Translations under genes and position numbers: made by a program
Source: an uncultured bacterium
Lineage (GTDB): Bacteria > Patescibacteriota > Minisyncoccia > UBA6257 > 2-01-FULL-56-20
NCBI GenBank assembly: GCA_963807165.1
Contig: CAWDZM010000001.1
Span: forward strand, 119,963 to 183,962
Direction of reading: 5' to 3'
Length of the DNA: 64,000 nt
The notes under the pieces: generated by a model
Seen by the model: only the letters and a program-made list of their open reading frames with translations
Database searches by the model: none
Told to the model about the DNA's origin: nothing
In this document: positions 2,582 to 28,870 of the stretch, in pieces
Layout of the letters: each line of letters opens with the position of its first letter
Numbering within the stretch: the first letter of the stretch is position 1

Positions 2582-2595
2582 CGATCGCTCCAGAA

Positions 2596-2744: not shown

Positions 2745-2748
2745 AAAA

Positions 2749-3477
2749 TTACTGTGGAAAATTCACCCTTTCCCCAGATGATAATGTGACGCTGTTTAAA
2801 ATTCCGAGAATTTTCGATTGTAAGCTGGCCTGCTCCGCATCGGTAAACTGCTGAATCGTGCCGGACGGATAGTTGCCAAAATCGGATTGCCCGATGCGTG
2901 TTTCAAATTCATAGCACGCGCCGTTGTAGGCCAGCCGATAGAGCGTGCCTTTTGCAAAATGGCCGGCGCCAGCATTGCCGATCGGTGTGAACTCACTTAC
3001 TGAATAATCGCCGACGGTGGTGCTGGTGGGAGTGAAGTTTGAAAAACCGGTGGGCGGCGTGGTAAGACATGCGGCCTGCGTCATAAGGTCGGTTCGTTTT
3101 TCTACGCGAATGCCAGCGCTTTCAAAATTGGTGCCTTGATATGCGGTGCCGATGTAGTAAAGGCAATAATCAAGATCCGCATCGCATGGAGGGATGTACG
3201 GATGCACTGCGATGTTTTGAGAAGACGTCGCCAGCGCAAAGTCGGCGGTCGGGTAGATGAGCGCGATTGTTCCATCGGAGATGCTTTGATCTCCCGATGG
3301 CGCAGTGCCGGTCGGAGCGCCGAGTACGAGCGTCGGGGCCGTGCCCTGCGATGTACTCGTCGAACCGGCGGGGTTTATCGCCCCATTTTGATTATTGGCA
3401 TTGATAAACCACAAAAACCCCGCAGCGAGAAAGGCGACGATGACGACAAAGACGATAGCAATGCCAAATTTCCCCAT
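2749..3477 (-). CDS. hypothetical membrane-anchored protein (N-terminal TM helix, Thr/Ser/Gly-rich)
   Basis: 242-aa ORF with N-terminal MGKFGIAIVFVVIVAFLAAGFLWFI; no recognisable catalytic motifs. Confidence 0.55.
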   Translation of the reverse strand: MGKFGIAIVFVVIVAFLAAGFLWFINANNQNGAINPAGSTSTSQGTAPTLVLGAPTGTAPSGDQSISDGTIALIYPTADFALATSSQNIAVHPYIPPCDADLDYCLYYIGTAYQGTNFESAGIRVEKRTDLMTQAACLTTPPTGFSNFTPTSTTVGDYSVSEFTPIGNAGAGHFAKGTLYRLAYNGACYEFETRIGQSDFGNYPSGTIQQFTDAEQASLQSKILGILNSVTLSSGERVNFPQ

Positions 3478-3504
3478 ACCTCTTATTGTACCGCATTACG
3501 GGTT

Positions 3505-3533
3505 GACAAATTTCACTGGTCGGCTATACTTGA
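3505..3533 (+). promoter_or_regulatory. sigma70-like promoter TTGACA-N17-TATACT upstream of rplJ
   Basis: gggTTGACAaatttcactggtcggcTATACTtg. Confidence 0.4.
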
Positions 3534-3539
3534 ACCAAT

Positions 3540-3660
3540 TCCAAAGACCATAGGTTTGCCGCTAAAGGCATGTAATACCTATGAGAGGAGGTTTGGGCAA
3601 TAGCCCTCACATTCTTCGCGGCCTTGGAACGGCCGTTTTCTGTTTTTAAGGAATTATTAA
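3540..3660 (+). promoter_or_regulatory. candidate L10 (rplJ) leader / autoregulatory structure with a terminator-like hairpin
   Basis: ~130-nt 5' UTR before rplJ containing GCGGCCttggaacGGCCGtttt; L10 leaders are known autoregulatory elements. Confidence 0.3.
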
Positions 3661-3672
3661 TAAAAAATTATT

Positions 3673-4350
3673 ATGAAAACACGGGCACAAAAAGAAACAG
3701 AGTTGGCACACGCACGCACGCTTTTTGAAAAGAGCGAAGCGCTGATTTTTGCCGACTTCACTAAGATCACGGCAGAGAACCTTCGCAAACTTCGCACCGA
3801 GCTGAAAAAGTCCGGCGCAAACTTCCTCGTCATCAAGAAGCGCATCCTCGGCATCCTTTTGAAGGAAAAGGGAATCGACGTTGACCTTAAGCAGTTCAAG
3901 ACATCCGTTGGTACGATTTTCTCGGAAGTAGATAGCGAGCACATCGCCGGACCGGCGTTCAAGTTCTTCTCGGGCATGGAAGTTCCGGAAGGCCAGGCGA
4001 AAGACGTTTGGATCAAGAAGATTCTCGCTGGCTATAACATCGTCGCAAAAACACCGATGACTGCCGAAGAGATCGTCTACATCGGCAAGCTCCCGCCGCG
4101 CGAGGTCGTGCTGGCACAACTACTTGGCATGCTCGCCGCGCCGATCCGTTCGTTCCTCTATATCCTTGATGAGAAATCAAAGATGGGTGGTGGCAGCGCA
4201 GAGCCGGTTGCCCAGTCTCCCGAACCCGCGGCGCCGTCCGCGCCGGAAGCAGTTGCAGAACCTGCAGCCGTTGCAGAGCCTGCGGCAGAAACCCCTTCCA
4301 CTGATACCGACATCCCTGAACAAAAGGTCGAGCTAACGCAAGCACAATAA
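3673..4350 (+). CDS. rplJ: 50S ribosomal protein L10 with Ala/Pro/Glu-rich C-terminal extension
   Basis: Sequence similarity to L10 ([58 protein letters not shown]...); located upstream of rplL. Confidence 0.9.
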
Positions 4351-4354
4351 AACA

Positions 4355-4720
4355 ATGGCAAATCACGAAGATTTAATTTCGAAAATAGAGTCTCTCACGG
4401 TAGTTGAGCTCGCGGAGCTCGTGAAGAAGCTTGAAGAGAAGTTCGGCATCTCGGCTGCGGCCCCGGTGGCGGCAGGCGGCGGAGCCGGCGCAGCTGCGGC
4501 GGAAGAGAAGACGGCATTCAACGTTGTCCTCAAATCGGCCGGAGCAAGCAAGTTGAACGTCATCAAGGTTGTCCGCGAAGTGACGACCCTCGGCCTTAAG
4601 GAGGCAAAGGATCTCGTAGACGGCGCACCGAAGACGATCAAAGAGAACGTCAAGAAGGAAGAGGCCGAAGAGATCAAGAAGAAGATCACGGAGGCAGGTG
4701 GAGTTGCGGAGATCGCATAA
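4355..4720 (+). CDS. rplL: 50S ribosomal protein L7/L12
   Basis: [29 protein letters not shown]...[41 protein letters not shown]. Confidence 0.9.
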
Positions 4721-4723
4721 AAC

Positions 4724-4797
4724 AAAAAGCCCCTCTTATTTGACGAGAATGCCACGTAGGAACGTGACCGCCAAATAAGAGGGGCTTTTTGTTTTAT
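4724..4797 (+). terminator. rho-independent terminator after rplL
   Basis: aaaagcccctcttatttg ... caaataagaggggcttttt-gtttt. Confidence 0.7.
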
Positions 4798-4844
4798 TAA
4801 TAGTTGAAAAGAAGAGAGAAGTGAATTACTATAACTTGTGCAAA

Positions 4845-4916
4845 GGGCGTTTAGCTCAGTGGTAGAGCGTTCCGTTCACATCGGAGAGGTCGCAGGTCCG
4901 ATCCCTGCAACGCCCA
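4845..4916 (+). tRNA. tRNA-Val(CAC)
   Basis: Acceptor GGGCGTT/AACGCCC, D-arm GCTCAGTGGTAGAGC, anticodon stem TTCCG/CGGAG with loop TTCACAT, T-arm GCAGGTCCGATCCCTGC. Confidence 0.8.
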
Positions 4917-4920
4917 CAAA

Positions 4921-5036
4921 AAGAATTCCCCATACGTCCTTTCAGGGACGTGTCGCGGCCTACTGGCCGCGCACTCTATCTCGGCGCTCTTCGCGCCTCC
5001 GATGAGCCCCTCAAAGAGTATGGGAATTCTTTTTTA
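4921..5036. repeat. cloverleaf-like multi-hairpin element (17-bp outer stem enclosing three hairpins); probable bidirectional terminator between tRNA-Val and the convergent minus-strand gene
   Basis: Outer stem aaaagaattccccatac/gtatgggaattctttt; inner hairpins cgtcctttcagggacg, gtcgcggcctactggccgcgcac and tcggcgctcttcgcgcctccga. Confidence 0.5.
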
Positions 5037-5039
5037 GAT

Positions 5040-5732
5040 CTATTCAAGTAAAAAAGATCGGATTTTTAAGGCCATGGCAACATGGTCTTCTAGTCGGAGT
5101 GCGGCGATATCGTTTCCGCGCCTTTCGGAAGGAATATATTCTATAAGATCAAAAAATCTAAAATTTGGACGATTTATTTTTTCTACCGCATCTTTAATTC
5201 TCTTGGCCTCGTCGAATTCTATATAAGGATTCATTGTTTCATACACCCAATGATGATGCTTTGCAAAATTTTTTAAATAATCCTCCCCGATAGCCGATTG
5301 AATTAAATCTTCCAATTCGGTATTCCATTCCGGAGGCTGAAACTCCATTTTTTTGGTGTATCCAACAAACGCAGCGCGAATGTTAAGATTTTGATTTTGC
5401 AGTTCTAGATTCCTAACGCCTGTTGGTGGAATGGCAATGCCTTCGATAAGCGCATCTTTTCCTTTACGGCTTAGAAGTTTTATTAATCCGATCGTGCCAA
5501 TCCACGCAGGAGTGTCCTCGCCGGTTCTGAGTTCTGGTATTTCCGGCATCTTTGCCTCGTGGGGATCTCCCTTGGTAATAGACCGATAAAGTTCACTCGT
5601 GCTTGCGCGAATAAAATCCGTCGAATTTTGATACATAGGTTTCTGCGAACAAATGCATGGACCTATGATCGTCGATTTTCGCATTCCAGGCACTCCACCA
5701 ATGAGATAGATCATAAGAAGATTGTAACTCAA
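5040..5732 (-). CDS. hypothetical protein with degenerate P-loop-like motif
   Basis: 230-aa ORF; LIGGVPGMRKST resembles a Walker A variant; no further family assignment possible by eye. Confidence 0.45.
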   Translation of the reverse strand: MSYNLLMIYLIGGVPGMRKSTIIGPCICSQKPMYQNSTDFIRASTSELYRSITKGDPHEAKMPEIPELRTGEDTPAWIGTIGLIKLLSRKGKDALIEGIAIPPTGVRNLELQNQNLNIRAAFVGYTKKMEFQPPEWNTELEDLIQSAIGEDYLKNFAKHHHWVYETMNPYIEFDEAKRIKDAVEKINRPNFRFFDLIEYIPSERRGNDIAALRLEDHVAMALKIRSFLLE

Positions 5733-5879
5733 GTGGGGAATGGGGATTTCTTATAAATGATTTCGCCCTGTGTATATCTCTCATTTTTAGCACCCCCTAA
5801 TTTTTAAAAACCCCAGCAAAATCAATATATATTAGGACGATTGCCCCCGCGAAAGGGGATATTTTGACTATATATAGGA

Positions 5880-11453: not shown

Positions 11454-13214
11454 ATGAAAAAAATAATCGCAGCTGGTTCGATGTTGGTGTTCGCGTTGGG
11501 AGTTTTTGTTTCTGCGGTGCCGCAGGCATTAGCTGGGGAGTCGGGAACGCTTTCTTCTTTGACGGTATCGGCAGGAACTTTAACGCCAACGTTCGATCCG
11601 GCAATATTTTCATATACCGATGTTCTGCCGTATAACACCACCGTCGTTCCGACGGTATCGGCGTCTACCACTTCTGTTGATGCTACTGAGGTAATTACCC
11701 AAGCTACTAATACTACCGGATCGGCTACGGTTGTAGTGTCGGATACCAGTTCAACTCAAAACTCAACAACCTATACCGTCACTTTTTCACTCGCGCCGAT
11801 ACCGGCACCGGTGTGGAGTGCATCGGCTGATCTGGTGACTGGAGACGTAGTGAGTGGCGGGGGAACAACCCAGCTGACGTCGGCGTTCACGATGCCAGCA
11901 GGTGGTACATATGTGCAAATTCAGACTCCGTCGGCAAATCCTTTTTCCGTTCCGACGGCAAATGCGCTCGTTCCTTTCGTGTTGACCTCTACGGGCGGCG
12001 TTGACCTTGCTTCATACTATAAAGCTACCTATCCGGAAACGGATTGGACGACGGGTTGGGGTCAATACTTTATGAATACGCTTCCGACTGCCGGTGCAAG
12101 CCAGACCGCGATGTTCTACATCGTGAATGGCGGAACGCATTCGGTACAGAGCGGCCCACAGCGTTTTAAAGGAGTGACGGCTCCTCTGTTTCTCCCTGGC
12201 GATCTTCCTTCGGGAACTTATACCGTGGCCGGTGATGTGAATGGAACAACCCTCACGGTTACCTTCATTATTAACAATCCAAATGGATGGACTGCTCCGG
12301 TGAATCCGGTAACGCCAACCTCCACAGCGTCATCTACGCCTTCTTCTACTCCATCATCCACTATATATACATTGAATTATGGAACCGACGGTAATGGCAC
12401 GATCACGGGAAGTTCTACGCAAAACGTAGCTTCTGGCACTGACGGATCAGCAGTGACCGCCATGCCAAACGATGGCTTTCAGTTCGCAAGCTGGAGCGAT
12501 AGCTCGACCGCGAATCCTCGAACCGATACGGATGTAACGAGTAGTATCTCCGTCGTTGCGGATTTCTCTTCAATTCCGGTCACGCCGATCCCTAATATTG
12601 TGACAGGCGGTGGCGGAGGCGGCGGGGGAGGTGGTGGTAGTTTTAGTAGTTTTGGCGGCGGTGGTGCATATCCTTACACCATCCTAATTGATGGCGGTGC
12701 GACGACCACAACGTCATCCAACGTAACGCTCACGCTTGGTACTATCAGCACTGCGGCGGGAAATAATACGATGTGGATCTCGAACGATCCGAGCTTTGCC
12801 ACTTCGACCGGCACGGGATGGATTCCATTCCAAAAAAACTACCCGTGGATTTTAAACACGGTGCCAGCTGGCGTTCCTCGGACGGTCTATGTCCGGTTTG
12901 GCGTTACGAGTACTTCAACCCCAGTAGGATCCGCCCAGGCGAATATTTTCCTCGTAAACAATCAGGGTCAGGTCCTCGGTGCTTCGGCGTTTAACTTTAA
13001 CGTTAATCTTCACTTCGGCATATGTAGCAGCGACGTGATCCAGCTTCAAGATCGGCTTACGCAGGAAGGTTTGTATAGTGGTCCGATCACTGGTTGCTTT
13101 GGTCGGTTGACGCTTGCCGCGGTCAAGGCGTATCAGAAAAAATACGGAATTTCTGCCACGGGTTTTGTTGGTCCGTTGACCAGGGCGCAATTGAACAAAA
13201 TAAACGGCATATAG
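11454..13214 (+). CDS. secreted cell-surface protein: signal peptide, Thr/Ser-rich region, divergent InlB B-repeat-like segment, poly-Gly linker, C-terminal peptidoglycan-binding domain
   Basis: MKKIIAAGSMLVFALGVFVSAVPQALA signal; YTLNYGTDGNGTITG...FQFASWSDSSTANPRTDTDVTSSISVVADF repeat; GGGGGGGGGGGSFSSFGGGG; C-terminal LQDRLTQEGLYSGPITGCFGRLTLAAVKAYQKKYGISATGFVGPLT (PG_binding_1-like). Confidence 0.7.
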   Translation: MKKIIAAGSMLVFALGVFVSAVPQALAGESGTLSSLTVSAGTLTPTFDPAIFSYTDVLPYNTTVVPTVSASTTSVDATEVITQATNTTGSATVVVSDTSSTQNSTTYTVTFSLAPIPAPVWSASADLVTGDVVSGGGTTQLTSAFTMPAGGTYVQIQTPSANPFSVPTANALVPFVLTSTGGVDLASYYKATYPETDWTTGWGQYFMNTLPTAGASQTAMFYIVNGGTHSVQSGPQRFKGVTAPLFLPGDLPSGTYTVAGDVNGTTLTVTFIINNPNGWTAPVNPVTPTSTASSTPSSTPSSTIYTLNYGTDGNGTITGSSTQNVASGTDGSAVTAMPNDGFQFASWSDSSTANPRTDTDVTSSISVVADFSSIPVTPIPNIVTGGGGGGGGGGGSFSSFGGGGAYPYTILIDGGATTTTSSNVTLTLGTISTAAGNNTMWISNDPSFATSTGTGWIPFQKNYPWILNTVPAGVPRTVYVRFGVTSTSTPVGSAQANIFLVNNQGQVLGASAFNFNVNLHFGICSSDVIQLQDRLTQEGLYSGPITGCFGRLTLAAVKAYQKKYGISATGFVGPLTRAQLNKINGI

Positions 13215-17631: not shown

Positions 17632-17698
17632 GTCTTCCAAAAACACCTCGGCAATCGCCGGGGTGTTTTTTATTTCCGCAATCATTTATAATCGTGGA

Positions 17699-20398
17699 AT
17701 GCTTGAAGGAATCAAAAAAATATTCCAAAAGCGCTCGCTCGTGGCGCTGGAGGAAAAAGTTAAGGAAATCAATGCGTCGGAACCCGCGCTTGCGGCGCTC
17801 TCGAACGAGGAATTGACCGCAAAAAGCCTGGCATTACGGGAGCGGGCAAAGGCAAACGCGCAGGCGGGTGGTCAGGAAAGGGCACTCGATGAGGTTGCCG
17901 TAGAAGCGTTCGCGCTTGTGCGCGAAGCGGCGAAGCGCACGCTCGGCCAGCGCCCCTTCGATGTGCAGTTGCTTGGCGGACTCGTGCTCCATCGCGGCGC
18001 TGTTGCCGAGATGATGACCGGAGAAGGCAAGACGCTCGCCGGCGTCGCGCCGGCATACTTGAACGCACTCGCGGGCAAGGGCGTGCACGTCGTCACCGTC
18101 AACGAATATCTTTCCCGGCGCGACGCCGTGTGGATGGGAAAGATCTATCGCTTACTCGGACTCACCGTCGGATCGATCATCCCGGGTGCGGCGTTCGTCT
18201 ACGATCCGGAATGGGAGATCCCGAAGGCCGACGAGGCCGCAGAAGAAAAGAAAGTGGAGACCACCGGAAGTTTTTTGGTGCAACAGGAATTTTTGCGGCC
18301 GGTTTCGCGGCGCGATGCGTACAAGGCGGACATCACCTACGGCACCAACCACGAATTCGGTTTTGACTATCTGCGCGACAACTTGGTCTATCGCATTGAG
18401 GATCGCGTCCAGCGCGGCCACAACTTTGCCATTATCGACGAGGTGGACAGCATATTAATAGACGAGGCCCGGACACCGCTCATCATCGCCGCGCCGGACG
18501 CCCAGTCGAGCGACTTTTATAAGGCATTTGCCCGGATCGCGACCAATCTGGAAAAAGACGCGGATTACGAGGTTGATGAGAAGAAGAAATCCATCACGAT
18601 CACCGACGCAGGCGTGGAAAAGGTAGAGAAGCTGATTGGCGTGCAAAATATCTACGCGCCAGAGAATATTCGCCTCGTCCACTATATGGAAGAGAGCGTT
18701 AAGGCAAAGGCTCTTTTTACCCGCGATAAGGATTACGTGGTAAAGAATGGGGAGGTATATATAGTAGACGAGTTCACCGGGCGCTTGCTTGTCGGCCGGC
18801 GCTATCAGGCGGGATTACATCAAGCGATCGAAGCAAAGGAGGGCGTGAACGTCCAACAGGAGTCGCGCACCTATGCGAAGGTTTCCATCCAAAACTATTT
18901 CCGCATGTACGCGAAAATTTCCGGTATGACGGGAACAGCGCAGACGTCGGCTGAGGAATTTTTTAAAGTATATAAATTGGAAGTGGAAAGCATTCCGCCG
19001 AACCGCGGGTTGGCGCGCAAAGATTTGAACGATCTTATTTATAAAAACTTTGGTGCAAAGCTGAATGCGATCGCGGCGGATGTTAAGGAGCGGCAGAAAA
19101 AAGGCCAGCCGGTGCTGCTTGGCACAACTTCTATTGCTAAGAATGAACTGATCAGCGCGGCGCTCTCGCAGGCGGGGATTCAGCACGAGGTATTGAACGC
19201 AAAGAACAACGAGCGCGAAGGCGCGATCATCGCACAGGCGGGGCATTCCGGCGCGGTGACGGTGGCGACGAACGTCGCCGGGCGTGGAGTGGATATTCTG
19301 CTTGGCGGCAACCCGCCGGACGCGGCGGAGGCAGAGAAGGTGCGCGGACTCGGCGGCCTCCACGTGATCGGCACCGATCGCCACGAGGCGCGGCGCATCG
19401 ACAACCAGCTACGCGGCCGCGCCGGACGCCAAGGCGATCCTGGCTCATCGCAATTCTTCCTTTCGCTCGATGACGATTTACTCCGCATCTTTGGCGGCGA
19501 CCGCATCAAAGGCATGATGGAGCGTTTTGATCTTCCGGAAAACGAGCCTATCGAGTTTGGTATGGTCACAAAGGCCGTCGAACAGGCGCAGGAAAAAGTG
19601 GAGGGCGCAAACTTCGATATGCGCAAACATCTTCTTGAATACGACGATGTGCTGAATCGTCAGCGTAGTGCTGTCTATAAACGCCGCGCGGAGTTTTTGG
19701 AATTGGCAGATAAGGAGCTGATCGCTGGCGTCATTGCCGATGCGGCGATCGCGCACTTTACCGCGGCGATCGCGCCGGGCTTTGCGCAATTCGGCGCCGA
19801 GCGCGAAGCGGCAGTTGCGGAAGCGAGCAAGGCGTTTAAGGAAGCGGGGATTGCCATGGATGTTGAGGCACTTCATACCGAAGATGATTTCATCCAAGCT
19901 ATCCGCGAAAAGAGCGCCGTCGTTGCCGAACACGCGCTTATCAAAAATCAGATCATTGGAATCCTCGACATGCTGTGGATGACGAACCTGGAGGATCTTG
20001 AAGCGGTGCAGGAAGCCGTCGGCCTCCGCGCATATGCTCAGCATGATCCGCTCGTCGAATACCGACACGAGGCAAGCGTCCTGTTCAAAAATTTCTGGGG
20101 AAATTTCAACGCATGGATATTCAATAACATGTTCAAGCTGGCGGCGCAGGTGCCGCAGGGCGGGGGAGCGACAGGCGCGAGTGCGTCAGGCAATGCCGGT
20201 GGCGCTGCTACGTTCGGTTTGAATATCCCTACCGCCACGCCTGCGAGCGAGATGGGCTCTGGGCCGAAGATCGGGCGCAACGACCCGTGCCCGTGCGGCA
20301 GCAAGAAAAAATGGAAGCATTGCGGGCTTTTGAATACCGAAGAACATCAGATGAATATGGCGCAGGGCGGGGCAAAACACGAGGTTTCTGGGGGATAA
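17699..20398 (+). CDS. secA: preprotein translocase ATPase SecA
   Basis: MLEGIKKIFQKRSLVALEEKV..., Walker A MTGEGKTL, DEAD-like motifs, C-terminal zinc finger CPCGSKKKWKHCG. Confidence 0.9.
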   Translation: MLEGIKKIFQKRSLVALEEKVKEINASEPALAALSNEELTAKSLALRERAKANAQAGGQERALDEVAVEAFALVREAAKRTLGQRPFDVQLLGGLVLHRGAVAEMMTGEGKTLAGVAPAYLNALAGKGVHVVTVNEYLSRRDAVWMGKIYRLLGLTVGSIIPGAAFVYDPEWEIPKADEAAEEKKVETTGSFLVQQEFLRPVSRRDAYKADITYGTNHEFGFDYLRDNLVYRIEDRVQRGHNFAIIDEVDSILIDEARTPLIIAAPDAQSSDFYKAFARIATNLEKDADYEVDEKKKSITITDAGVEKVEKLIGVQNIYAPENIRLVHYMEESVKAKALFTRDKDYVVKNGEVYIVDEFTGRLLVGRRYQAGLHQAIEAKEGVNVQQESRTYAKVSIQNYFRMYAKISGMTGTAQTSAEEFFKVYKLEVESIPPNRGLARKDLNDLIYKNFGAKLNAIAADVKERQKKGQPVLLGTTSIAKNELISAALSQAGIQHEVLNAKNNEREGAIIAQAGHSGAVTVATNVAGRGVDILLGGNPPDAAEAEKVRGLGGLHVIGTDRHEARRIDNQLRGRAGRQGDPGSSQFFLSLDDDLLRIFGGDRIKGMMERFDLPENEPIEFGMVTKAVEQAQEKVEGANFDMRKHLLEYDDVLNRQRSAVYKRRAEFLELADKELIAGVIADAAIAHFTAAIAPGFAQFGAEREAAVAEASKAFKEAGIAMDVEALHTEDDFIQAIREKSAVVAEHALIKNQIIGILDMLWMTNLEDLEAVQEAVGLRAYAQHDPLVEYRHEASVLFKNFWGNFNAWIFNNMFKLAAQVPQGGGATGASASGNAGGAATFGLNIPTATPASEMGSGPKIGRNDPCPCGSKKKWKHCGLLNTEEHQMNMAQGGAKHEVSGG

Positions 20399-20427: not shown

Positions 20428-21438
20428 TTGACAGTATCTAAAAAAGATGCTAGAATTCAGTCCATGGAGAACAATAGCAATAAAGCCAAGTGGAAAATTG
20501 CGACCCTCCCACGCGTTCAGGCAGATGCCTTGATCTCGTGTTTTTTACTTACTTATTTTGGAGAGGGACAGTATCCCGGGATTAAAGAAGCGGAGTATTG
20601 TTTTTGGGTGGACATTCCGGAAGGAAAAACTTCAGACGAACTTGAGAAGGAAGGATACATTCTTCTTGACATGGGAGGAGGAAAGTTCGACCATCACGTT
20701 GCCGAAGGAAATCATCGCGAAAAATGCATGTCGCAATTGGTGGCGGAACATCTTGGTATCCATAAACAGCAATCGGTCAGAAAACTTTTGGAGTATGCCC
20801 GTCGCGACGATCTTTTGGGAAAGGGGACCATCTCCAACGATCCTATCGATCGCGCATTTGGTCTTTCCGGCCTCATCAATAATTTGAATCGCACGATGCC
20901 CGATGATCAGTTGTCAGTATTGAAGACGATCATGCCGTTGTTCGTCGCGCATTATATAGAAGAGCGAAAACGCTCCGAAGATTTCCCTCGGGAATTTCAG
21001 GAGAAGATAAACAATGGGAAGATGCATATGATTGTCCTTGAGACGGCGCGTGGCGCAATAAAGATGGCGATCATCGAGACGGACGAGATCGGTATGGCGG
21101 GATATCTTCGCGCCCAGCAAGGCGTTGATCTTGTGGTGCAGAAAATGTCGTCCGGGCACGTGAATATCATTACTCAGCAGAAAAAAGAGCTCGAGCTCTC
21201 CCAGATCGCGAAGTTTCTGCGCATGGCGGAAGCGGAGGAGAAGGGGATCGCGGATACACTCCAGGAAGCTGATCTGATAAACCCCGGAAGGATTGCGGGA
21301 GTGGAGGAATGGTATTTCGACATCCGGGCACGAACGATCCAGAACGGCGGCATTCGTCCTCAGTGGACGATCCCGACAAAGCTTTCATTGGCAATGATCG
21401 GCGAGATTATAAGACAAGCAGCAGCTATCAAAATTTAA
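20428..21438 (+). CDS. MYG1/UPF0160-like protein (divergent; metal-ligand His partly replaced)
   Basis: VQADALISCFLL and ILLDMGGGKFDHHV resemble the MYG1 motifs FHCDEALACALL and VVDVGG...YDHHQ (from memory, not searched). Confidence 0.4.
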   Translation: MTVSKKDARIQSMENNSNKAKWKIATLPRVQADALISCFLLTYFGEGQYPGIKEAEYCFWVDIPEGKTSDELEKEGYILLDMGGGKFDHHVAEGNHREKCMSQLVAEHLGIHKQQSVRKLLEYARRDDLLGKGTISNDPIDRAFGLSGLINNLNRTMPDDQLSVLKTIMPLFVAHYIEERKRSEDFPREFQEKINNGKMHMIVLETARGAIKMAIIETDEIGMAGYLRAQQGVDLVVQKMSSGHVNIITQQKKELELSQIAKFLRMAEAEEKGIADTLQEADLINPGRIAGVEEWYFDIRARTIQNGGIRPQWTIPTKLSLAMIGEIIRQAAAIKI

Positions 21439-21614
21439 CAAGCGGTCACGCGATTGTCCGGAACGAATGTTCTTGCCAATCGCGTGACCGCTTACTGGGC
21501 ACGATCGGAGCCGCTGTGGCACTGATAGGGCGTTCTGCAGAATAATGCACCGCCAAGCAGTTCATTTACAACCGCACTTTCGCCTCAAGCGAAAGGATCT
21601 CACTAGGAGGGATC

Positions 21615-22688
21615 ATGCCAGTTTCCAAGCCCGTTAGAGTTATCGTGTTCCCCGCGAACCCCCCAATCGACAAGTATGTTGCCGCTCGCCGGGTTCTCAA
21701 TGACAACACGCAGTATCAGGTGGTCGTCGAGTTCTGCAATGTCAACCAGCCGACGTCCGAGCATCTGGCAAAGTGGAGCGCAAGGTGTTCACCCGGCGTT
21801 GAGCCGTATCTCGTTGATATCGGCGACAAGAAGTATCACGGGTTAGGGTCTTCTGCCGCAGAGGTGGAGCTCGCCGCATCAGAGACGCGGGAAAGCCGAA
21901 TACTCCGGCATCTCGTTGACCTCGTCAACGAAAACAACAGAACCGGCAACCTCAAGAACCGCCTGCATCCGATCGCCAAGATTATGCGGGACGCCTACCA
22001 TGTCATGAACGGCAACGACTCTTCTCAGACTGTGGTCTTTGACCACGGGATGGATGTGGTTAACGCATACTTCATGGATCATGGACGTCGCTCTTGGGAC
22101 ACGCTTTCCAACCCCGAGTATGCTGAACTCAAAACACTGTGGGATGGGTTCAACGTTTCGGAAAATGAAGTGCTTGATTTCACCCTTCCGCTTTACTTCA
22201 AGCAGCTCTTTACGAGCGGCCGAAGCGCGGAGGAGATCGTCGAAAAGATCTCCTGGTGGATCAAGAAAGCCAAGATGGCTGCCGATCGCCGTGCTGCGAT
22301 CAGGGGCACGAAGTATGAGATCCGCAAGTTCAAGATTCAAGGTTACGCTGCGGGGCTCGTTCACATCACGGATTACTTCGAGGCGGAGGAAGCTCCTTAC
22401 AAGCTGTTCGGCGACAAGACTCTCGAGCTTTCGCTGCTGATCATCCGGGACGCGCAGGGGCACGTGCACATCAAGAGCTCCTACCGTTATCCGGGGATCA
22501 ACCTGGATAAGCTGTTCGAGGTGTTGGACAAGCTGGAGCCGGGGCTTTGGTACTTCGAGAAGCGGTTCAAAGCGGGGCCGATGATCATGAACGGCTCTCG
22601 CCAGTTTACCGGAGTTGCCTCCACTGAATTGTCTGACGGAGACATCTGCCAGTTAGCGCACGAGTTTGTAACGTTTGATAAGAAGTAG
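21615..22688 (+). CDS. divergent paralog of the upstream MYG1/UPF0160-like protein; probably non-catalytic; atypical codon usage
   Basis: Collinear similarity to 20428..21438: YLVDIGDKKYHGL vs ILLDMGGGKFDHH, LELSLLIIRDAQGHVHIKSS vs GVDLVVQKMSSGHVNIITQ, and GLWYFEKRF...STELS vs EEWYFDIRA...PTKLS; the gene is richer in GC-ending codons than its neighbours. Confidence 0.4.
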   Translation: MPVSKPVRVIVFPANPPIDKYVAARRVLNDNTQYQVVVEFCNVNQPTSEHLAKWSARCSPGVEPYLVDIGDKKYHGLGSSAAEVELAASETRESRILRHLVDLVNENNRTGNLKNRLHPIAKIMRDAYHVMNGNDSSQTVVFDHGMDVVNAYFMDHGRRSWDTLSNPEYAELKTLWDGFNVSENEVLDFTLPLYFKQLFTSGRSAEEIVEKISWWIKKAKMAADRRAAIRGTKYEIRKFKIQGYAAGLVHITDYFEAEEAPYKLFGDKTLELSLLIIRDAQGHVHIKSSYRYPGINLDKLFEVLDKLEPGLWYFEKRFKAGPMIMNGSRQFTGVASTELSDGDICQLAHEFVTFDKK

Positions 22689-22791: not shown

Positions 22792-23115
22792 ATGACCATA
22801 GACGAGTTTCAAAAGTCCGACCTGCGGGTCGGAAAAATAGTTTCCGCGGAACGCGTGGAGGGTTCGGAGAAGCTCTTGAAGCTTCAGGTCGACATCGCCG
22901 AGCCGGAACCGCGCCAGATCCTTTCGGGCATCGCCAAGGCGTATGCGCCGGAGGATATTGTGGGCAAGAGCGTGGTGATCATCGCCAACCTCGAGCCGCG
23001 CATGATGATGGGCGAGGAGTCGAATGGGATGCTGCTCGCGGCGCATGGTGTGGACGGGTCGCCCGTGCTTTTCTTTCCGGCAAGCGATGTTCCTCCGGGC
23101 GCAAAAATCTCATAG
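22792..23115 (+). CDS. csaA: tRNA-binding domain protein (CsaA / MetG C-terminal-like)
   Basis: FQKSDLRVGKIVSAERVEGSEKLLKLQVDIAEPEPRQILSGIAKAYAPEDIVGKSVVIIANLEPRMMMGEESNGMLLA. Confidence 0.7.
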   Translation: MTIDEFQKSDLRVGKIVSAERVEGSEKLLKLQVDIAEPEPRQILSGIAKAYAPEDIVGKSVVIIANLEPRMMMGEESNGMLLAAHGVDGSPVLFFPASDVPPGAKIS

Positions 23116-23947: not shown

Positions 23948-24622
23948 ATGAAAATCTTATTAATCGAGGACGAGCGGGAGATAGCGCATTTTATTATTAA
24001 TGGGCTCAAGGCGGAGCACTTCACGGTCGATTGGGCGGAGGGCGGTGCGAAAGGGCTTATGTGGGCAAAGGTCAATCCATATGATCTTGCGATTATCGAC
24101 ATCAATCTCGGCAACAACGAAAACGGTATCGATATTTGCGGAGAGATTCGCGCGAAGGGCAGAATGTTTCCGATCATTATGCTTTCGGTGGTGAATGACG
24201 CGCACACCAAGATCGAGGCGCTGAACATCGGCGCGGATGATTATCTTACTAAGCCATTTTTTGTGGCGGAGCTCCTTGCCCGCGTCCGCGCGCTTTTGCG
24301 CCGTGAGAAGAAGCTGATCGGGCCAAAGCTCATCATCGCTGACCTTGTGATGGACACGCTCGCGCACACCGTTAGGCGCGCGGGAGTGGAGATCAAGCTG
24401 AACCGCAAGGAGTTCACCTTGCTGGAATATTTTATGCGCAACGCCGGTACTACGCTTACGCGTGGCATGATCCTTGAACACGTGTGGGATATTAACGCCG
24501 ACCCGTTTACCAACACGGTGGACGTGCACGTGCGCTTCCTCCGCGCAAAGATAGACGAAGGGCACGAACAAAAACTTATCAAAACGGTGCATGGATATGG
24601 TTACAGAATCGAAGGTGTATAA
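23948..24622 (+). CDS. OmpR-family response regulator
   Basis: Receiver domain MKILLIEDEREIA...LAIIDINLG...; C-terminal winged helix ...TVHGYGYRIE. Confidence 0.85.
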   Translation: MKILLIEDEREIAHFIINGLKAEHFTVDWAEGGAKGLMWAKVNPYDLAIIDINLGNNENGIDICGEIRAKGRMFPIIMLSVVNDAHTKIEALNIGADDYLTKPFFVAELLARVRALLRREKKLIGPKLIIADLVMDTLAHTVRRAGVEIKLNRKEFTLLEYFMRNAGTTLTRGMILEHVWDINADPFTNTVDVHVRFLRAKIDEGHEQKLIKTVHGYGYRIEGV

Positions 24623-24632
24623 TAGAGAAACC

Positions 24633-27086
24633 ATGACTAACCAAAAATCATCTCTTCCAACCACATTTGTCGTGCTCGGCGTTACGGGCGATCTTATGAC
24701 CAAAAAGATCGCGCCTGCGCTTTTTAATCTGCACGAAAAAGGCCTGTTGCCGCCGCACTTTCGCCTGGTGGGCGTCTCGCGCCGCGACTGGACGGACGAT
24801 GACCTGAAGCGTCACATTCAGGCAATTTTGGAGGTGCGGGTAAAGAACGCCTCGCCAGCGTCCGTCGCATCGTTTTTGAAGACCGTTGTCTATCACAAGA
24901 TCACGTTCGATGCGTTTGCGGATTACGTGGCGCTCGGCGATGCGCTCAAGAAAATCGACGACGAACACGGCGCGTGCTCGAACAAGCTCTTCTATCTTTC
25001 TGTGCCGCCACAGTTCTACGACATGATCTTTACGAACATCCACAAGGCGCGGCTGACGGAGCTATGCGATGCATCGACGGGCGGTTGGACGCGCGTGGTG
25101 GTGGAGAAGCCATTTGGCAGTGATGAGAAGAGCGCGAAGGCGCTCGACGAACGCATTGCGCGGCTATTCAAAGAAGAGCAGGTGTATCGCATTGATCATT
25201 ATTTGGCGAAGGAGACGTTGCAGAATATTTTGACATTCCGGTTCCTTAACAATCTTTTTGAAGATAATTGGGGACGCGATCTGATCGAAAAGATTTATGT
25301 GCGCGAACTGGAGAACGTGGGCGCGGAGGATCGCGGGCCTTTTTATGAAAGCGTCGGCGCTCTGCGTGACGTCGGCCAGAATCATCTGCTCGAGATGATC
25401 GCGCTTATTGCGATGGATCAACCACACGACATGAGCGCCGACGCGATCCGTGCCGCGCGCGCGGCGGTGCTCGAAACGATCAAGCCGATTACGCCATCCG
25501 AAATGTCTAAAAAAACATTCCGCGCGCAGTACGATGGCTATCGCGCTATTAAAGGTGTGGATCCCAAGTCCGGCGTGGAAACGTATTTCAAGCTTGCACT
25601 CCAGCTGACACATCCGCGCTGGCAGGGCGTGCCAATATTTATAGAGGCAGGCAAGCGCATCATCGACCCCAAGCGCAACGAGGAGGTGACGGAGATCGAG
25701 GTGGTGTTCAAGCACGAGACTCCGTGTCTCTGTGCGCTCTACGGCGCCGGTGCGCCGGGCGCGAACGTGCCGATGCACTTCAAGAACTCCATCACATTCC
25801 GGCAGGATCCGCATGAGAGCATTACGATCCGCTTCTGGGCAAAGAAGCCGGGGATCGGCATGGAAATGGAAGAGCGCGTATTCAACGTGGATCTCCGCCA
25901 GGGTGAGCGCAAGTCGCAGTACACGGAAGAGTACGAAAAGCTCTTGCTCGATTGCATCAACGGCGACCAAACACTTTTCGTCTCGAGCCGCGAGGTCGCC
26001 GCAATGTGGCACTTCGTTGATCCCATTGTAAGGGGATGGGCGAAGGGTCTTGTGCCGCTCCGGCGCTACGCGCCGGATAGCGAAGCCGTTGTTGTTGAAG
26101 CGGCGACGTTGCTTGAGCCGCCGGAGAGCGCTACGGAAAAAGGCGCGGGCGCACGTGACAGAATCCGCAAAGAGATCGGTATCTTTGGTCTCGGCAAGAT
26201 GGGCGCAAACGTCGCACGGCAGTTGCACGAAAAGGGCTGGCGCGTCGTCGCATCCAACCGTTCGCCCGGGCCGGTGGAGATGATCCAAAAAGAGGGTATT
26301 CAGGGCGTGTTCACGCATTCGGAACTTGTGGCAGAGTTGAAATCGCCACGCATTATCTGGCTGATGATCACCGCCGGAAAGGGGAACGATGATCTGCTTT
26401 TTGGTAAAGATGGCATCGTGCAACATTTAAAGAAGGGCGATATCGTTATTGATGCCGCGAATGCATTTTACGAGGACTCCGTGCGCCGCGCAAAGCTGCT
26501 CAAAAAGCGCGGCATCCATTTTATGGACGTCGGATTTTCCGGTGGGCCGTCGGGCGCGCGCAACGGCGGATCACTCATGATCGGCGGCGAGCGCGAAATA
26601 TTCCAGCGCTTGGAGCCGCTCTTCCGCGACCTCTCCGTGCCGGGCGGCTATTCGTACTTCGGTTCCGCCGGCGCCGGCCACTTCGTAAAGATGGTGCACA
26701 ACGGCATCGAGTACGGCATGATGCAATCGCTCGCGGAAGGTTTTGCCATTATGAAAAAATCGCCGTTCAAGCTGGATCTCGAACAGGTGGCGAACGTTTA
26801 CAACCAAGGTAGCGTCATCGAGTCGCGCCTCGTGGGATGGTTGGAAGATGCGTATAAGCTCTACGGCCAGGATCTCAAGACCGTTTCCGGTTCCGTCGCG
26901 TACACCGGAGAAGGCGAGTGGACGGTCAAGACTGGCAAAAAATTAAAAGTGCCCGTGCCCGTTATTGAGGACTCGTTCAAGTTCCGCGTCCGCTCAAAGA
27001 AGTCGCCGAGCTATATCGGGAAGGTGTTGTCCGCGCTGCGAAATCGGTTTGGGGGGCATGCGATAGATCAGGGGAAGGGAAAATAG
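24633..27086 (+). CDS. zwf-gnd: fusion protein: glucose-6-phosphate 1-dehydrogenase (Zwf) N-terminal half plus short-form 6-phosphogluconate dehydrogenase (Gnd/YqeC-like) C-terminal half
   Basis: N-terminal VLGVTGDLMTKKIAPALFNL...RIDHYLAKE (G6PD motifs); C-terminal IGIFGLGKMGANVARQL...GSAGAGHFVKMVHNGIEYGMMQ (6PGDH NAD-binding and signature); one continuous 831-aa ORF; alternative start at 24591. Confidence 0.75.
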   Translation: MTNQKSSLPTTFVVLGVTGDLMTKKIAPALFNLHEKGLLPPHFRLVGVSRRDWTDDDLKRHIQAILEVRVKNASPASVASFLKTVVYHKITFDAFADYVALGDALKKIDDEHGACSNKLFYLSVPPQFYDMIFTNIHKARLTELCDASTGGWTRVVVEKPFGSDEKSAKALDERIARLFKEEQVYRIDHYLAKETLQNILTFRFLNNLFEDNWGRDLIEKIYVRELENVGAEDRGPFYESVGALRDVGQNHLLEMIALIAMDQPHDMSADAIRAARAAVLETIKPITPSEMSKKTFRAQYDGYRAIKGVDPKSGVETYFKLALQLTHPRWQGVPIFIEAGKRIIDPKRNEEVTEIEVVFKHETPCLCALYGAGAPGANVPMHFKNSITFRQDPHESITIRFWAKKPGIGMEMEERVFNVDLRQGERKSQYTEEYEKLLLDCINGDQTLFVSSREVAAMWHFVDPIVRGWAKGLVPLRRYAPDSEAVVVEAATLLEPPESATEKGAGARDRIRKEIGIFGLGKMGANVARQLHEKGWRVVASNRSPGPVEMIQKEGIQGVFTHSELVAELKSPRIIWLMITAGKGNDDLLFGKDGIVQHLKKGDIVIDAANAFYEDSVRRAKLLKKRGIHFMDVGFSGGPSGARNGGSLMIGGEREIFQRLEPLFRDLSVPGGYSYFGSAGAGHFVKMVHNGIEYGMMQSLAEGFAIMKKSPFKLDLEQVANVYNQGSVIESRLVGWLEDAYKLYGQDLKTVSGSVAYTGEGEWTVKTGKKLKVPVPVIEDSFKFRVRSKKSPSYIGKVLSALRNRFGGHAIDQGKGK

Positions 27087-27880: not shown

Positions 27881-28870
27881 ATGGAGGGTATGATCCCGGA
27901 CGACATAAAAGCCTACGGTAAACAGTTCGATTTTGAGCCAAATATCGAAAACGCCGCCAAACTCAAGAAGTTTGGCAAATTTGTGGTTGTGGGCATGGGC
28001 GGATCTCATTTGGCGGCCGATATCATCAAGGCGTGGCATCCGGAGATCGACATTGTGGTGTGGTCCAATTACGGACTGCCGCCGCTTGCCGAGAAAGACC
28101 TCAAAGAGCGCCTCATCATCTTGAGCTCATATTCGGGAAGCACTGAAGAGGTGCTCGATGCGTTCGCCGTGGCGAAGACAAAGAAACTTTCGATGGTGGC
28201 GCTCGCGACGCACGGAAAATTGATCTCGCTTGCCGATAAGGCAAAGATTCCGTATGTGCGCATTCCGGACACGCACATCCAGCCGCGCATGGCGACGGGT
28301 TTGATGCTCAAAGCGTTGCTTGCGCTGATGGGCGAGAAGAACCTGCTCGCGGAAGCGAAGGCGCTTTCCACTCAGATACATCCGTCGCGGGAAGAGTTGC
28401 GTGGCAAAGATCTCGCGCGGCGCATTCACGGTGTGGTGCCGATTATCTATGCGTCCACGCGCAATCAGGCGCTGGCTTATAACTGGAAGATCAAGTTCAA
28501 CGAGACGAGCAAGATCCCGGCGTTCTATAATATCGTCCCCGAGCTGAACCATAACGAGATGACGAGCTTCGACGTGAAGACGAAAACCATGCCGCTTTCG
28601 CGCAATTTTCATTTTATATTTTTGAAGGATGCGGGCGACGATCGCCGCCTCATTAAGCGCATGAATGTGCTCGAAAAACTGTATCGTGATCGTGGATTCA
28701 AGACAGAGATCATTTTGCTCCAGGGAAAAACGGAACTAAATAAGATTTTTAACGCGCTCAACCTTGCGGATTGGACGGCGTACTATAGCGCAAAGATGTA
28801 TGGCGTGGAAGCGGAGCAGGTGCCGATGGTGGAAGAGTTTAAAAAGCTGATCGCGCGGAACACTCAATAG
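27881..28870 (+). CDS. pgi: bifunctional phosphoglucose/phosphomannose isomerase (SIS domain, archaeal-type PGI/PMI)
   Basis: FVVVGMGGSHLAADIIKAW...SYSGSTEEVLDAF (SIS motif), ~330 aa; TATAAT immediately upstream. Confidence 0.7.
   Translation: MEGMIPDDIKAYGKQFDFEPNIENAAKLKKFGKFVVVGMGGSHLAADIIKAWHPEIDIVVWSNYGLPPLAEKDLKERLIILSSYSGSTEEVLDAFAVAKTKKLSMVALATHGKLISLADKAKIPYVRIPDTHIQPRMATGLMLKALLALMGEKNLLAEAKALSTQIHPSREELRGKDLARRIHGVVPIIYASTRNQALAYNWKIKFNETSKIPAFYNIVPELNHNEMTSFDVKTKTMPLSRNFHFIFLKDAGDDRRLIKRMNVLEKLYRDRGFKTEIILLQGKTELNKIFNALNLADWTAYYSAKMYGVEAEQVPMVEEFKKLIARNTQ

Follow-up and report, generated by a model that had tools for sequence, protein, structure and literature searches.

Two adjacent genes, A and B, lie in a 64-kb stretch of DNA (the whole stretch analysed, hereafter the window) from a member of the Patescibacteria, also called the CPR. 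What do they encode, and why does one stand beside a second, strongly altered version of itself? The first-pass annotation had read them as tandem MYG1/UPF0160-like paralogs, an active enzyme next to a degenerate partner that might be regulatory or recently acquired. We found that A and B are paralogs that diverged long ago, within a branch of the DHH/DHHA1 phosphoesterase superfamily that had not been annotated before, and that they form a conserved two-gene module of the Patescibacteria. As had been noted, they are flanked by secA (PF07517 and others) and a tRNA_bind/CsaA-like gene (PF01588, 2e-28).

Both open reading frames had been placed correctly except for the start of A, which had been put at position 20428. 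The TTG at that position belongs to the −35 hexamer of a promoter. The start of A is the ATG at 20464, and the resulting product agrees with public gene calls and with all homologs. The promoter matches 11 of 12 consensus positions and includes an extended −10 TG, and the arrangement TTGACA-N17-TGnTAnAAT is also found upstream of A in 10 further loci. Across A-type loci, the ATG usually lies 6 to 8 nt past the −10 element and has no SD. Gene A appears to be leaderless.

Table. Features of the A-B module in the window (all coordinates are window positions).
Feature	Position	Strand	Description
Gene A promoter	20428..20456	+	TTGACA, 17 nt, (TG)cTAGAAT; near-consensus
Gene A	20464..21438	+	324 aa; DHH/DHHA1-fold protein with intact metal-ligand motifs; presumed catalytic subunit
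A motif I, Q19-A-D21	20518..20526	+	Family consensus [Q/H]-x-D; D21 invariant (n=40 sequences); aligns to MYG1 FHCD57E
A motifs II and III, D69-M-G-G-G-K-F-D76-H77-H78	20668..20697	+	D69, D76, H77 and H78 invariant
A motif IV region, R113-R114-D115-D116	20800..20811	+	R114 and D116 invariant
A C-terminal Q293-N294-G295-G296	21340..21351	+	Invariant; putative positional counterpart of DHHA1 GGGH and MYG1 F-I-G-G
Long hairpin	21440..21493	+	Directly 3' of the A stop; 17-nt perfect arms AAGCGGTCACGCGATTG / CAATCGCGTGACCGCTT; no U-tract
B leader element	21565..21617	+	Single-stranded TTTACAACCGCAC, 7-bp hairpin, GGATCTCA, SD AGGAGG, ATG
B leader 7-bp hairpin	21577..21595	+	CTTTCGC/GCGAAAG
B SD AGGAGG	21605..21610	+	Within the leader element, 5' of the ATG
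Gene B	21615..22688	+	357 aa; DHH/DHHA1-fold paralog of A; conserved remodelled "active-site" region; presumed non-catalytic or neofunctional partner
B D19	21669..21671	+	Motif I Asp kept in P-P-I-D-K; invariant in 44 diverse B-type sequences; aligned to A D21
B D68-I-G-D-K-K-Y74-H75	21816..21839	+	Motif II Asp kept, DHH replaced; register from hhalign
B N105-E-N107-N108-R-T-G111-N-L-K114	21927..21956	+	Replaces A R-R-D-D-x-x-G; motif IV Asp to Asn
B M325-N326-G327-S328	22587..22598	+	Counterpart of A Q-N-G-G; N326 and S328 invariant; high-confidence alignment

The proposal that A and B are collinear, homologous and divergent paralogs with the fold of DHH-motif phosphoesterases held up. Because a BLASTP comparison of A and B was not significant (E 0.44), profiles and intermediate sequences were needed to establish the paralogy. 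With narrow family profiles, hhalign joined only the C-terminal domains (89%). With a broadened B profile, A aligned over its full length (99.8%, E 3e-29, 273 columns), and intermediate sequences match both the A and the B HMMs. The predicted models of the two proteins have the same two-domain alpha/beta fold, consisting of a DHH domain, a linker and a DHHA1-like domain (pLDDT 91.7 for B), and B has a helical insertion of ~70 residues. The GGGH motif of DHHA1 has become QNGG in A and MNGS in B.

Library searches did not name these families. PF01368 (DHH) and PF02272 (DHHA1) had no matches at E<=10 among 40 A-family and 29 B-family members, and searches of PDB sequences with A, B and the A profile returned chance matches only. 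NCBIfam, PADLOC and Pfam searches of 113 family members gave nothing meaningful. Weak matches to DUF6715 (4 of 40 A members) and DUF6687 (5 of 29 B members) were rejected, and none occurred in the broader B set (0/44). In the literature, we found no earlier description of DHH proteins in Patescibacteria or of a DHH fusion to a 2H phosphoesterase.

MYG1/UPF0160 (PF03690) is a 3'-5' RNA exonuclease with a DHH motif, present in eukaryotes and in some bacteria, and to our knowledge MYG1 is a single gene with no degenerate paralog partner. The assignment of A and B to that family fails because neither protein matches PF03690 at E<=1, a result set beforehand as decisive against it. There was no match at E<=10 among the 40 A-family and 29 B-family members and none at E<=0.01 among 44 extended B-type sequences, while human MYG1, the positive control, scored 458.7 bits against a gathering score of 22.1 bits. 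The milder claim, that A resembles MYG1, proved reasonable for a distant relative. In hhalign, the A family matched MYG1 at 80.7% (E 1.3e-5, 119 columns), with the N-terminal domain aligned at confidence and a MYG1 alignment that is vertebrate-biased (Neff 2.5). QxD and HxD, D-x-GG...[FY]DHH, the motif IV Asp and LS...LN are all in register, and motifs II and III of A match VVDVGGEYDPRRHRYDHHQ of MYG1 across a 6-residue gap. The B profiles reached 0.2% and 0.4%, which is no profile link. The A profile found no match among PDB sequences, although MYG1 chains (24ah etc.) are in that set. MYG1 chains were also absent from the fold-search lists, whose libraries may not include them. By profile comparison, MYG1/UPF0160 appears to be the nearest named relative of the module, and only a distant cousin.

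A and MYG1 are both two-domain DHH-superfamily proteins of similar size (core ~320 to 330 aa), both hold motifs II and III unusually close together (7 residues in A, 13 in MYG1), and both have a GG in the C-terminal part, possibly at equivalent positions. The differences begin at motif I, where MYG1 has H-x-G-x-F-H-x-D-E (two His, one Asp), A has P-R-V-Q19-A-D21 and B has P-P-I-D19-K. The two motif-I His of MYG1 are thus missing in A and B alike, and A retains Q/H at the −2 position. The MYG1 motif D-V-G-G...[Y/F]-D-H-H-Q is matched by A (L-L-D69-M-G-G-G-K-F-D76-H77-H78), with a 6-residue deletion, but not by B, and A is without the 6-residue EYDPRRH loop of MYG1. At the C terminus, F-V-H344-A-S-G-F-I-G-G of MYG1 faces W-Y-F-D286-x-x-A-x-T-I-Q-N-G-G of A. 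The IQNGG of A is paired with FIGG of MYG1 in a low-confidence hhalign extension and with MNGS of B at high confidence. In MYG1, the DHH triad is essential, its change to ALL inactivates the enzyme, and His344 determines RNA specificity (PMC6582341). A has no conserved His counterpart of His344 and carries an invariant Asp near that position. A divergent B-type protein (locus L025) has HFVHCG, which resembles FVHASGF of MYG1.

It is distinctly unlikely that A and B are bona fide orthologs or co-orthologs of MYG1/UPF0160, with A a 3'-5' RNA exonuclease like MYG1. The hhalign match, the motifs in register, the tight spacing of motifs II and III and the HFVHCG of the L025 protein argue for such membership. 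Against it stand the silence of PF03690 in both families beside a strong control, the lack of conservation in A of the motif I His (H50, H55) and the specificity His344, the negligible B profile scores and the lack of a PDB sequence match for the A profile.

The canonical DHH/DHHA1 enzymes (NrnA nanoRNase/pAp phosphatase, TM1595 PDE, GdpP/DhhP, PggH, RecJ, PPX1 and family II pyrophosphatase) are at 7 to 20% sequence identity, carry DxD as motif I where A carries QxD, and space motifs II and III by ~22 to 25 residues, against 7 in A. We know of no conserved pair in which one of them is encoded beside a degenerate paralog. Cdc45 and the archaeal RecJ-Cdc45 proteins (GAN), with inactive or variably active DHH folds, have only the fold in common (8 to 13% identity), and their structural ranking may owe something to how the domains are oriented in the model. 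Cdc45 belongs to the replisome and carries large insertions; B, by contrast, is a bacterial protein of 357 aa that has an active-looking paralog as its partner.

The motifs noted in the first-pass annotation, QADALISCFLL and LLDMGGGKFDHH in A and DIGDKKYHGL in B, were confirmed. A keeps [Q/H]xD, D, DHH and RRDD, and as judged from sequence it has the DHH superfamily motif set I to IV (D21, D69, D76-H77-H78 and D116) with a variant motif I, QxD. The counterpart of this motif is DxD in canonical DHH enzymes and H55-x-D57 in MYG1, and in the A of this genome Gln stands in place of the first Asp/His. In hhalign, D116 of A pairs with D173 of MYG1 (EEID173AIDNG); it also pairs with N108 of B.

B had been described as lacking the N-terminal His/Asp ligands and as having degraded metal-ligand motifs, and each description was half right. 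The His is absent, but the Asp is not, for D19 aligns with D21 of A and is invariant (n=44). Likewise, the DHH triad is lost, as is the Asp of motif IV, but the region is remodelled and conserved rather than degraded. F-D-H-H of A corresponds to Y-H-x-x of B, and N107/N108 of B align with D115/D116 of A. Across the narrow B family, D68, K73, Y74, H75, N105, N107, N108, G111 and K114 do not vary. The motif D-[IVL]-G-x-x-K-Y-H recurs across 148 B-type representatives (DHH occurs in just one of them), and N-x-N-N-x-x-G is found throughout the extended family. The DHH motif set of B is therefore incomplete, with one Asp each in motifs I and II, H75 alone in motif III and N108 in motif IV. Since the remodelled motifs recur in ~190 representative clusters, down to ~21% identity, B belongs to an old sister family and is not a fresh decay product.

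The two genes travel together. In every one of the 17 distinct loci examined that have a B-type gene (the window and 16 others), an A-type gene lies next to it, with A before B in most and B before A in two. The surroundings of the pair are unrelated from locus to locus: secA/csaA; ABC transporters/msrA; UPF0102/integrase/NYN; uvrC/GIY-YIG; or an M50 peptidase. Because the pair stays together while its neighbors change completely, we rejected the secA/csaA context as a functional clue, and the neighborhood offers no consistent one. In four loci (L004, L005, L029 and L030), an A-type gene, solo or 2H-fused, has no B-type gene within ±4 to 5 kb, so B is not universally required for the function of A. 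The unannotated proteins encoded 5' of the solo A in L004 (290 aa) and L005 (274 aa) show no relationship to one another or to B. Domains of 2H (LigT-like) phosphoesterases are independently fused to A-type proteins, N-terminally in three (P0046, P0087 and P0095) and C-terminally in one (P0059), and these fusions point to RNA-end chemistry.

The codon usage of B had been singled out as richer in C- and G-ending codons, with recent acquisition as a possible cause. The excess is real. Its GC3 of 0.709 ranks second among the 45 genes of the window, and its synonymous-codon distance ranks fourth of 45 and is the most deviant among genes of >250 codons. However, B is not an outlier: measured against the spread among the 45 genes, it lies only ~+1.5 to +1.9 SD out, in the upper tail, with secA (0.661) and zwf-gnd (0.692) not far below it. 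GC3 is higher in B than in A in 12 of 12 loci, including orthologs at 26 to 44% identity, and the excess is therefore a property of gene B that is inherited with it. The order murB-hpf-secA-A-B-csaA-FKBP is conserved in relatives with B 54 to 69% identical. A recent horizontal transfer of B would account for the two high ranks, but given this synteny, the adjacency in 17 loci, the ~190-cluster family of its own and the shared GC3 excess, we regard it as extremely improbable. Horizontal transfer was rejected as the source of the codon bias because the bias recurs across all 12 loci.

The RNA of the 176-nt A-B spacer is predicted to be structured. The long hairpin behind A is kept with compensatory changes in three loci, an alternative downstream pairing is possible for its 3' arm, and RNAalifold on 10 loci proposed mutually exclusive pairings. 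For the B leader we chose a covariance model, R1, because in the most divergent loci the leader hairpin came out misaligned with MAFFT. R1 scored 82 bits at the B leader, with one copy in the window, and recovered five held-out loci (E 3e-17 to 1e-5) and, weakly, two more, always just 5' of B. It missed L010, in which ACCGTAC and a CCAAGCA/TGCTTGG hairpin can be seen by eye before the SD. In the leader hairpin, 98.1% of the cells are paired and five of seven pairs show compensatory changes; the observed score was reached by 0 of 500 shuffles. B is thus preceded by a conserved structured RNA leader with covariation. None of 4227 Rfam covariance models matches the A-B spacer or the B leader, and the sub-threshold chance matches were miRNA- and snoRNA-type, at 28.6 bits against a gathering score of 83, on both strands. 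The + strand of the spacer has no promoter-like site.

What the module does can be proposed from these features. We lean, by a modest majority of our confidence, toward a pair that acts on the ends of RNA or nucleotides, with A as the catalytic subunit and B as its non-catalytic partner. With a full DHH-type set of metal and catalytic residues ([Q/H]xD, D, DHH, D), A would be the active member, most likely a divalent-metal-dependent phosphoesterase of RNA or oligonucleotide ends (an exoribonuclease, nanoRNase or pAp-type enzyme). B, which has (K)YH for DHH and Asn-Asn for the two Asp of motif IV, keeps only two of the acidic ligands and has gained a helical insertion; it most likely could not build a binuclear metal site and would be inactive. 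It would most likely serve as a substrate-binding or regulatory partner, probably in an A-B heterodimer; NrnA-type DHH enzymes, by analogy, form homodimers. One conserved promoter would drive a leaderless A cistron, then the conserved, structured RNA of the spacer, and last the B cistron, which has a strong SD. This layout may explain the differing codon bias of A and B. Some observations count against such a catalytic pair: the A-MYG1 link is just 80.7%, A has Gln in motif I, and there are A genes without B. Another is that the B replacements K73, Y74, H75, N105, N107, N108 and K114 are very strongly conserved, a pattern that a changed catalytic or ligand-binding site would explain no worse than a dead site would.

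That conservation is the basis of a serious but clearly less probable reading, in which B is a neofunctionalised enzyme or a ligand sensor and A and B act sequentially on one substrate, for example by end-healing and then exonucleolysis. D19, D68, K73, Y74, H75, N105, N107, N108 and K114 would then form a new active or binding site, perhaps mononuclear or metal-independent. The replacements are invariant in the narrow family and recur throughout the extended one, the B model is very confident, and a mere scaffold usually needs less conservation than B shows. Solo A genes, some fused to a second RNA-end enzyme (2H), also suggest that the usual companion of A is another enzyme. On the other side, all characterised DHH enzymes known to us need both the DHH triad and the Asp of motif IV for catalysis, Asp-to-Asn change at metal ligands is a classic inactivation, and we know of no enzyme family that uses a KYH/NxNN site on a DHH fold. 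The dead DHH-to-ALL form of MYG1 (PMC6582341) argues in the same direction.

We also weighed a conflict or defense module, such as a signal-nucleotide-degrading DHH enzyme with a sensor partner. NrN, a DHH enzyme of SAM-AMP degradation, is among the structural neighbors of A in the fold search, and genes for 2H phosphoesterases, GIY-YIG, NYN and integrase proteins lie nearby in some loci. However, A, B and the 2H fusions match no PADLOC model, the family is inherited vertically and occurs widely, and in the clade of the window the pair is surrounded by a stable set of housekeeping genes (murB, hpf, secA, csaA, FKBP, zwf-gnd, pgi), which makes a defense role highly unlikely. Returning to the catalytic pair, a bolder form of it, which we hold to be rather unlikely as a whole, is an RNA-end-processing enzyme that is obligately heteromeric and confined to Patescibacteria. 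Its active DHH subunit would be guided or gated by the remodelled paralog, and the enzyme would fill a nanoRNase or 3'-5' exoribonuclease role missing from these reduced genomes. The new spacer RNA, with its leaderless A and its hairpin-guarded, SD-led B, would set the stoichiometry post-transcriptionally, possibly as a switch that responds to a ligand or a protein and senses the substrate or product of the enzyme itself.

Patescibacteria have small genomes, many hypothetical proteins and a poorly defined RNA turnover machinery. The fold and a plausible chemistry can now be offered for two sizeable families outside the curated libraries (at least 322 A-type proteins and ~190 B-type clusters), and every B-type gene examined, in 17 loci, is linked to an A-type gene. 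A covarying leader RNA new to Rfam comes with them. The fold and the motif logic are familiar, and current understanding is not overturned. Within the DHH superfamily, the module would be a natural case of an enzyme with a remodelled-paralog partner, and it suggests that a MYG1-like branch of the superfamily reaches the CPR bacteria.

Profile comparisons show that the neighboring genes A and B are paralogs. BLASTP of A against B was uninformative (E = 0.44), and the narrow A and B family profiles matched each other (89%) in the C-terminal domain alone. HMMER, run exhaustively with the B profile, returned 190 representative clusters at E ≤ 1e-3 (126 at ≤ 1e-10). The B profile far outscored the A profile for every one of the best 148 B representatives, and DHH is present in the N-terminal part of 1 of the 148; about 60% also reached the A HMM, at up to 45 bits. 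An alignment of 44 B-type sequences matched the A family with 99.8% probability (E = 3e-29) over 273 columns spanning both domains, and a plain HMM built from it matched A-type proteins at 54 to 95 bits. AlphaFold2 models from the family alignments were confident for A (pLDDT 89.6, pTM 0.80) and B (pLDDT 91.7, pTM 0.87). Foldseek matched DHH-type enzymes, namely TM1595 (E = 2.7e-4, probability 0.98) and family II pyrophosphatase (probability 0.99). Both modeled proteins carry the DHH/DHHA1 fold.

Compared with A, B has gained a helical insertion of about 70 residues, and its motifs are altered. The first-pass annotation was right that DHH is gone from motif III of B. It had also reported the loss of the N-terminal Asp ligand; however, D19 aligns with D21 of A and is invariant in 44/44 diverse B-type sequences. 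Because of this invariance, and because the replacement motifs D-[IVL]-G-x-x-K-Y-H and N-x-N-N-x-x-G recur throughout the extended B family, the substitutions in B are not the product of random decay.

Correspondence of motifs between A and B and between A and MYG1
Motif	A	Counterpart	Register
I	D21	B D19	full-length
II	D69	B D68	full-length
III	F75-D76-H77-H78	B Y74-H75-x-x	full-length
IV	D115-D116	B N107-N108	full-length
C-terminal	Q-N-G-G	B M-N-G-S	full-length
	Q-x-D21	MYG1 F-H-C-D57-E	profile-profile
	L-L-D69-M-G-G-G-(6-residue gap)-K-F-D76-H-H	MYG1 V-V-D-V-G-G-E-Y-D-P-R-R-H-R-Y-D-H-H-Q	profile-profile
	R-R-D-D116	MYG1 E-E-I-D173	profile-profile
	G-L-S-G-L-x-x-N-L-N	MYG1 N-L-S-A-R-V-x-x-L-N-P	profile-profile

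By sequence criteria, neither A nor B belongs to UPF0160. Both lacked Pfam and NCBIfam matches; 40 A-family and 29 B-family members scanned singly at E ≤ 10 did not match UPF0160, DHH, or DHHA1, and the 44 diverse B-type proteins had zero Pfam matches at E ≤ 0.01. A positive control with a human MYG1 sequence gave 458.7 bits on PF03690 and hits to PDB "MYG1 exonuclease" chains at ~1e-228. We collected genuine PF03690 proteins, aligned 16 of them, and compared the resulting profile with the A and B families. Over 119 columns, the A family and the N-terminal domain of MYG1 aligned with 80.7% probability (E = 1.3e-5), and the motifs were in register. In a laxer local run, the alignment reached the C-terminal IQNGG/FIGG, at low confidence. 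This alignment makes A plausibly a distant cousin of MYG1 inside the DHH superfamily. The B family showed no link to the MYG1 profile (0.2% and 0.4%). The earlier description of a MYG1/UPF0160-like pair failed for the curated family, as the PF03690 search was empty for A, B, and their family members, but its intuition was good at the level of the fold; its interpretation overall is partly supported.

Both ORFs and both flanking genes of the first-pass annotation were found. The TTG at 20428, taken there as the start of A, is the -35 hexamer of a promoter. We instead place the start at ATG 20464, because the resulting 324-aa product has the same length as all close homologs and is identical to the public-record product of the contig. 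The listed secA ORF has a GTG start (17663..17698) that adds about 12 residues (MFFISAIIYNRG) ahead of MLEGIKK, and the true start is probably an internal Met. Further downstream, an 831-aa ORF (24591..27086) is an apparent fusion of glucose-6-phosphate dehydrogenase with a 6-phosphogluconate-dehydrogenase-like NAD-binding domain, followed by a bacterial PGI (27881..28870). Its syntenic homolog in the related locus L001 has G6PD_N/G6PD_C, NAD_binding_2, and 6PGD.

Features of the A-B region, in window coordinates
Feature	Coordinates	Strand	Remarks
secA	17663..20398		5' flank of pair; SecA_DEAD 7.6e-115
A promoter	20428..20456	+	near-consensus sigma-70 type; TTGACA, 17 nt, TAGAAT; 11/12 matches, extended -10 TG
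Gene A	20464..21438	+	ATG start, 324 aa
A-B spacer	21439..21614	+	176 nt; multi-hairpin RNA, nucleotide conservation above flanking-CDS prediction
Long hairpin	21440..21493		spacer start; perfect 17-nt arms
B leader element	21565..21617		invariant ACAACCG[C/T]AC, 7-bp hairpin, GGATCTCA, strong SD
Gene B	21615..22688	+	ORF as first annotated
tRNA_bind/CsaA-like gene	22792..23115		3' flank of pair; 107 aa; PF01588, 2e-28

A and B are strictly linked wherever B exists: an adjacent A was found in 17/17 distinct B-containing loci, window included. The block murB-hpf-secA-A-B-csaA-FKBP...zwf/gnd is syntenic in relatives whose B is 54 to 69% identical. The neighborhoods of the pair are wholly different in L007 (identities of 60% for A and 49% for B) and L008 (52% for A and 43% for B). 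Genome and metagenome scans added further loci, two from GTDB matches labeled Candidatus Doudnabacteria and the rest from unclassified Patescibacteria or uncultured MAGs. In each of the 15 distinct loci whose sequence reaches far enough 5' of B, A immediately precedes B; these A-to-B loci include L025, whose B-type gene is just 26% identical and matches both HMMs. The order is B to A for two very distant B-type genes (P0332 and P0296), which precede A-type genes (500 and 344 bits), and a small GIY-YIG ORF intervenes in one of these two loci. Solo A-type genes (42 to 46% identity) in L004 and L005 have no B-type gene nearby.

Several other features of these loci were recorded. An A-type gene is immediately or closely upstream of ftsH in L005/L006, L008, and L029, a UPF0102 (YraN-like) gene is upstream of the A-type gene in L008 and L029, and in L005 the second gene upstream is of beta-CASP/RMMBL (RNase J-like) type. 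In L008, the A-B pair and an integrase are closely followed by a gene for a 336-aa protein (3995..5005) without Pfam, A HMM, or B HMM matches, and next to it by an NYN ribonuclease-domain gene (5020..5508). In L003 (contig_8567), secA, A, and zwf-gnd are each broken into at least two ORFs (around 1361..4154, 4848..5823, and 11657..13089), probably by frameshift errors of long-read assembly rather than as real pseudogenes.

The A promoter, TTGACA-N17-TGnTAnAAT, is kept in 11 loci (window, L001, L003, L014, L022, L008, L016, L007, L010, L011, and L025). In these, the ATG usually lies 6 to 8 nt past the -10 and lacks a Shine-Dalgarno sequence, implying a leaderless or near-leaderless A cistron. 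In contrast, B is preceded by a long, structured leader and by a strong AGGAGG. R1, a covariance model of this leader element built from eight sequences, recovered held-out L023, L019, L017, L008, and L020 (E of 3e-17 to 1e-5) and, weakly, L021 and L011, always just 5' of B. R1 finds a single copy of the element in the window, and all of its matches lie 5' of B-type genes of the A-to-B clade, with none in B-to-A or solo-A loci. In the R1-fitted alignment, 98.1% of cells pair, versus 86% in shuffles and 34 to 59% when slid. Compensatory changes affect 5/7 pairs of the leader hairpin, G-U pairs are present, and 0/500 shuffles reached the observed covariation. By eye, L010, L011, and L021 have a hairpin of wholly different sequence at the same position. 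RNAalifold on 10 spacers suggests mutually exclusive pairings involving the invariant leader segment. No Rfam family matches the spacer, which is a candidate new cis-regulatory leader of B. A and B are apparently co-transcribed; the lack of a promoter-like site on the + strand of the spacer is consistent with this, although not proof.

The first-pass annotation had also found B richer in C/G-ending codons and possibly recently acquired. The enrichment is real: the GC3 of B is 0.709, against a window mean of 0.576 (SD 0.091) for 64 mechanical ORFs and 0.594 (SD 0.078) for 45 cleaner genes, among which B ranks second. By synonymous-codon distance B ranks 4/45, behind three AT-rich genes (GC3 ~0.37). 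B is thus in the upper tail and is not an outlier. GC3 of B exceeds that of its partner A in 12/12 loci (window, L001, L003, L007, L008, L010, L011, L013, L015, L016, L021, and L025) by up to +0.41, for example 0.82 versus 0.51 in L011 and 0.79 versus 0.38 in L021. The excess is therefore conserved with the gene rather than left over from a recent transfer, and horizontal acquisition of B has little or no support; a possible cause is stronger translational selection on B. Genes at 556..1191, 5040..5732, and 57477..58190 (and also at 1285..1698 and 47490..47882) have a much lower GC3 (0.34 to 0.38) than the window mean of ~0.59. Their codon usage deviates most within the window, and they lie inside local low-GC patches (GC 0.38 to 0.44). 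They are more plausible foreign-DNA candidates than B.

The motif residues kept by A are the catalytic residues of DHH enzymes. A-type proteins also occur fused to a 2H (LigT-like) phosphoesterase domain, N-terminally in P0046, P0051, P0073, P0077, P0080, P0087, P0095, P0099, P0103, P0107, and P0119 and C-terminally in P0059; fusion at either end implies independent events. The fused domains bear paired H-x-T/S motifs, and no B gene is near the fusions examined (P0046, P0087, and P0095, N-terminal; P0059, C-terminal). Substrates of 2H phosphoesterases are 2',3'-cyclic or 2'-5' phosphate ends, and the fusions imply a link of A-type proteins to this RNA-end chemistry. In MYG1, changing DHH to ALL abolished function, and His344 tunes the preference for RNA versus DNA (PMC6582341). 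Given the DHH-superfamily precedent, the affinity to MYG1, and the recurrent 2H fusions, we suggest that A is probably a metal-dependent phosphoesterase acting on the ends of RNA or oligonucleotides.

In B, both DHH and the motif IV Asp are lost, and a different polar set is conserved. We suggest that B serves as a non-catalytic partner or specificity subunit, probably in a heterodimer with A. The main rival holds that the conserved KYH and NxNN of B make up a new catalytic or ligand-binding site, with A and B acting in sequence. A defense-system role for the pair has little or no support. Neither family is named in curated libraries, and literature searches returned no description of either. 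The fold and motif logic of DHH enzymes are well known; what is new is the conserved pairing of an apparent enzyme with a remodeled paralog, in CPR-wide families with a weak bridge to MYG1 and a candidate leader RNA.
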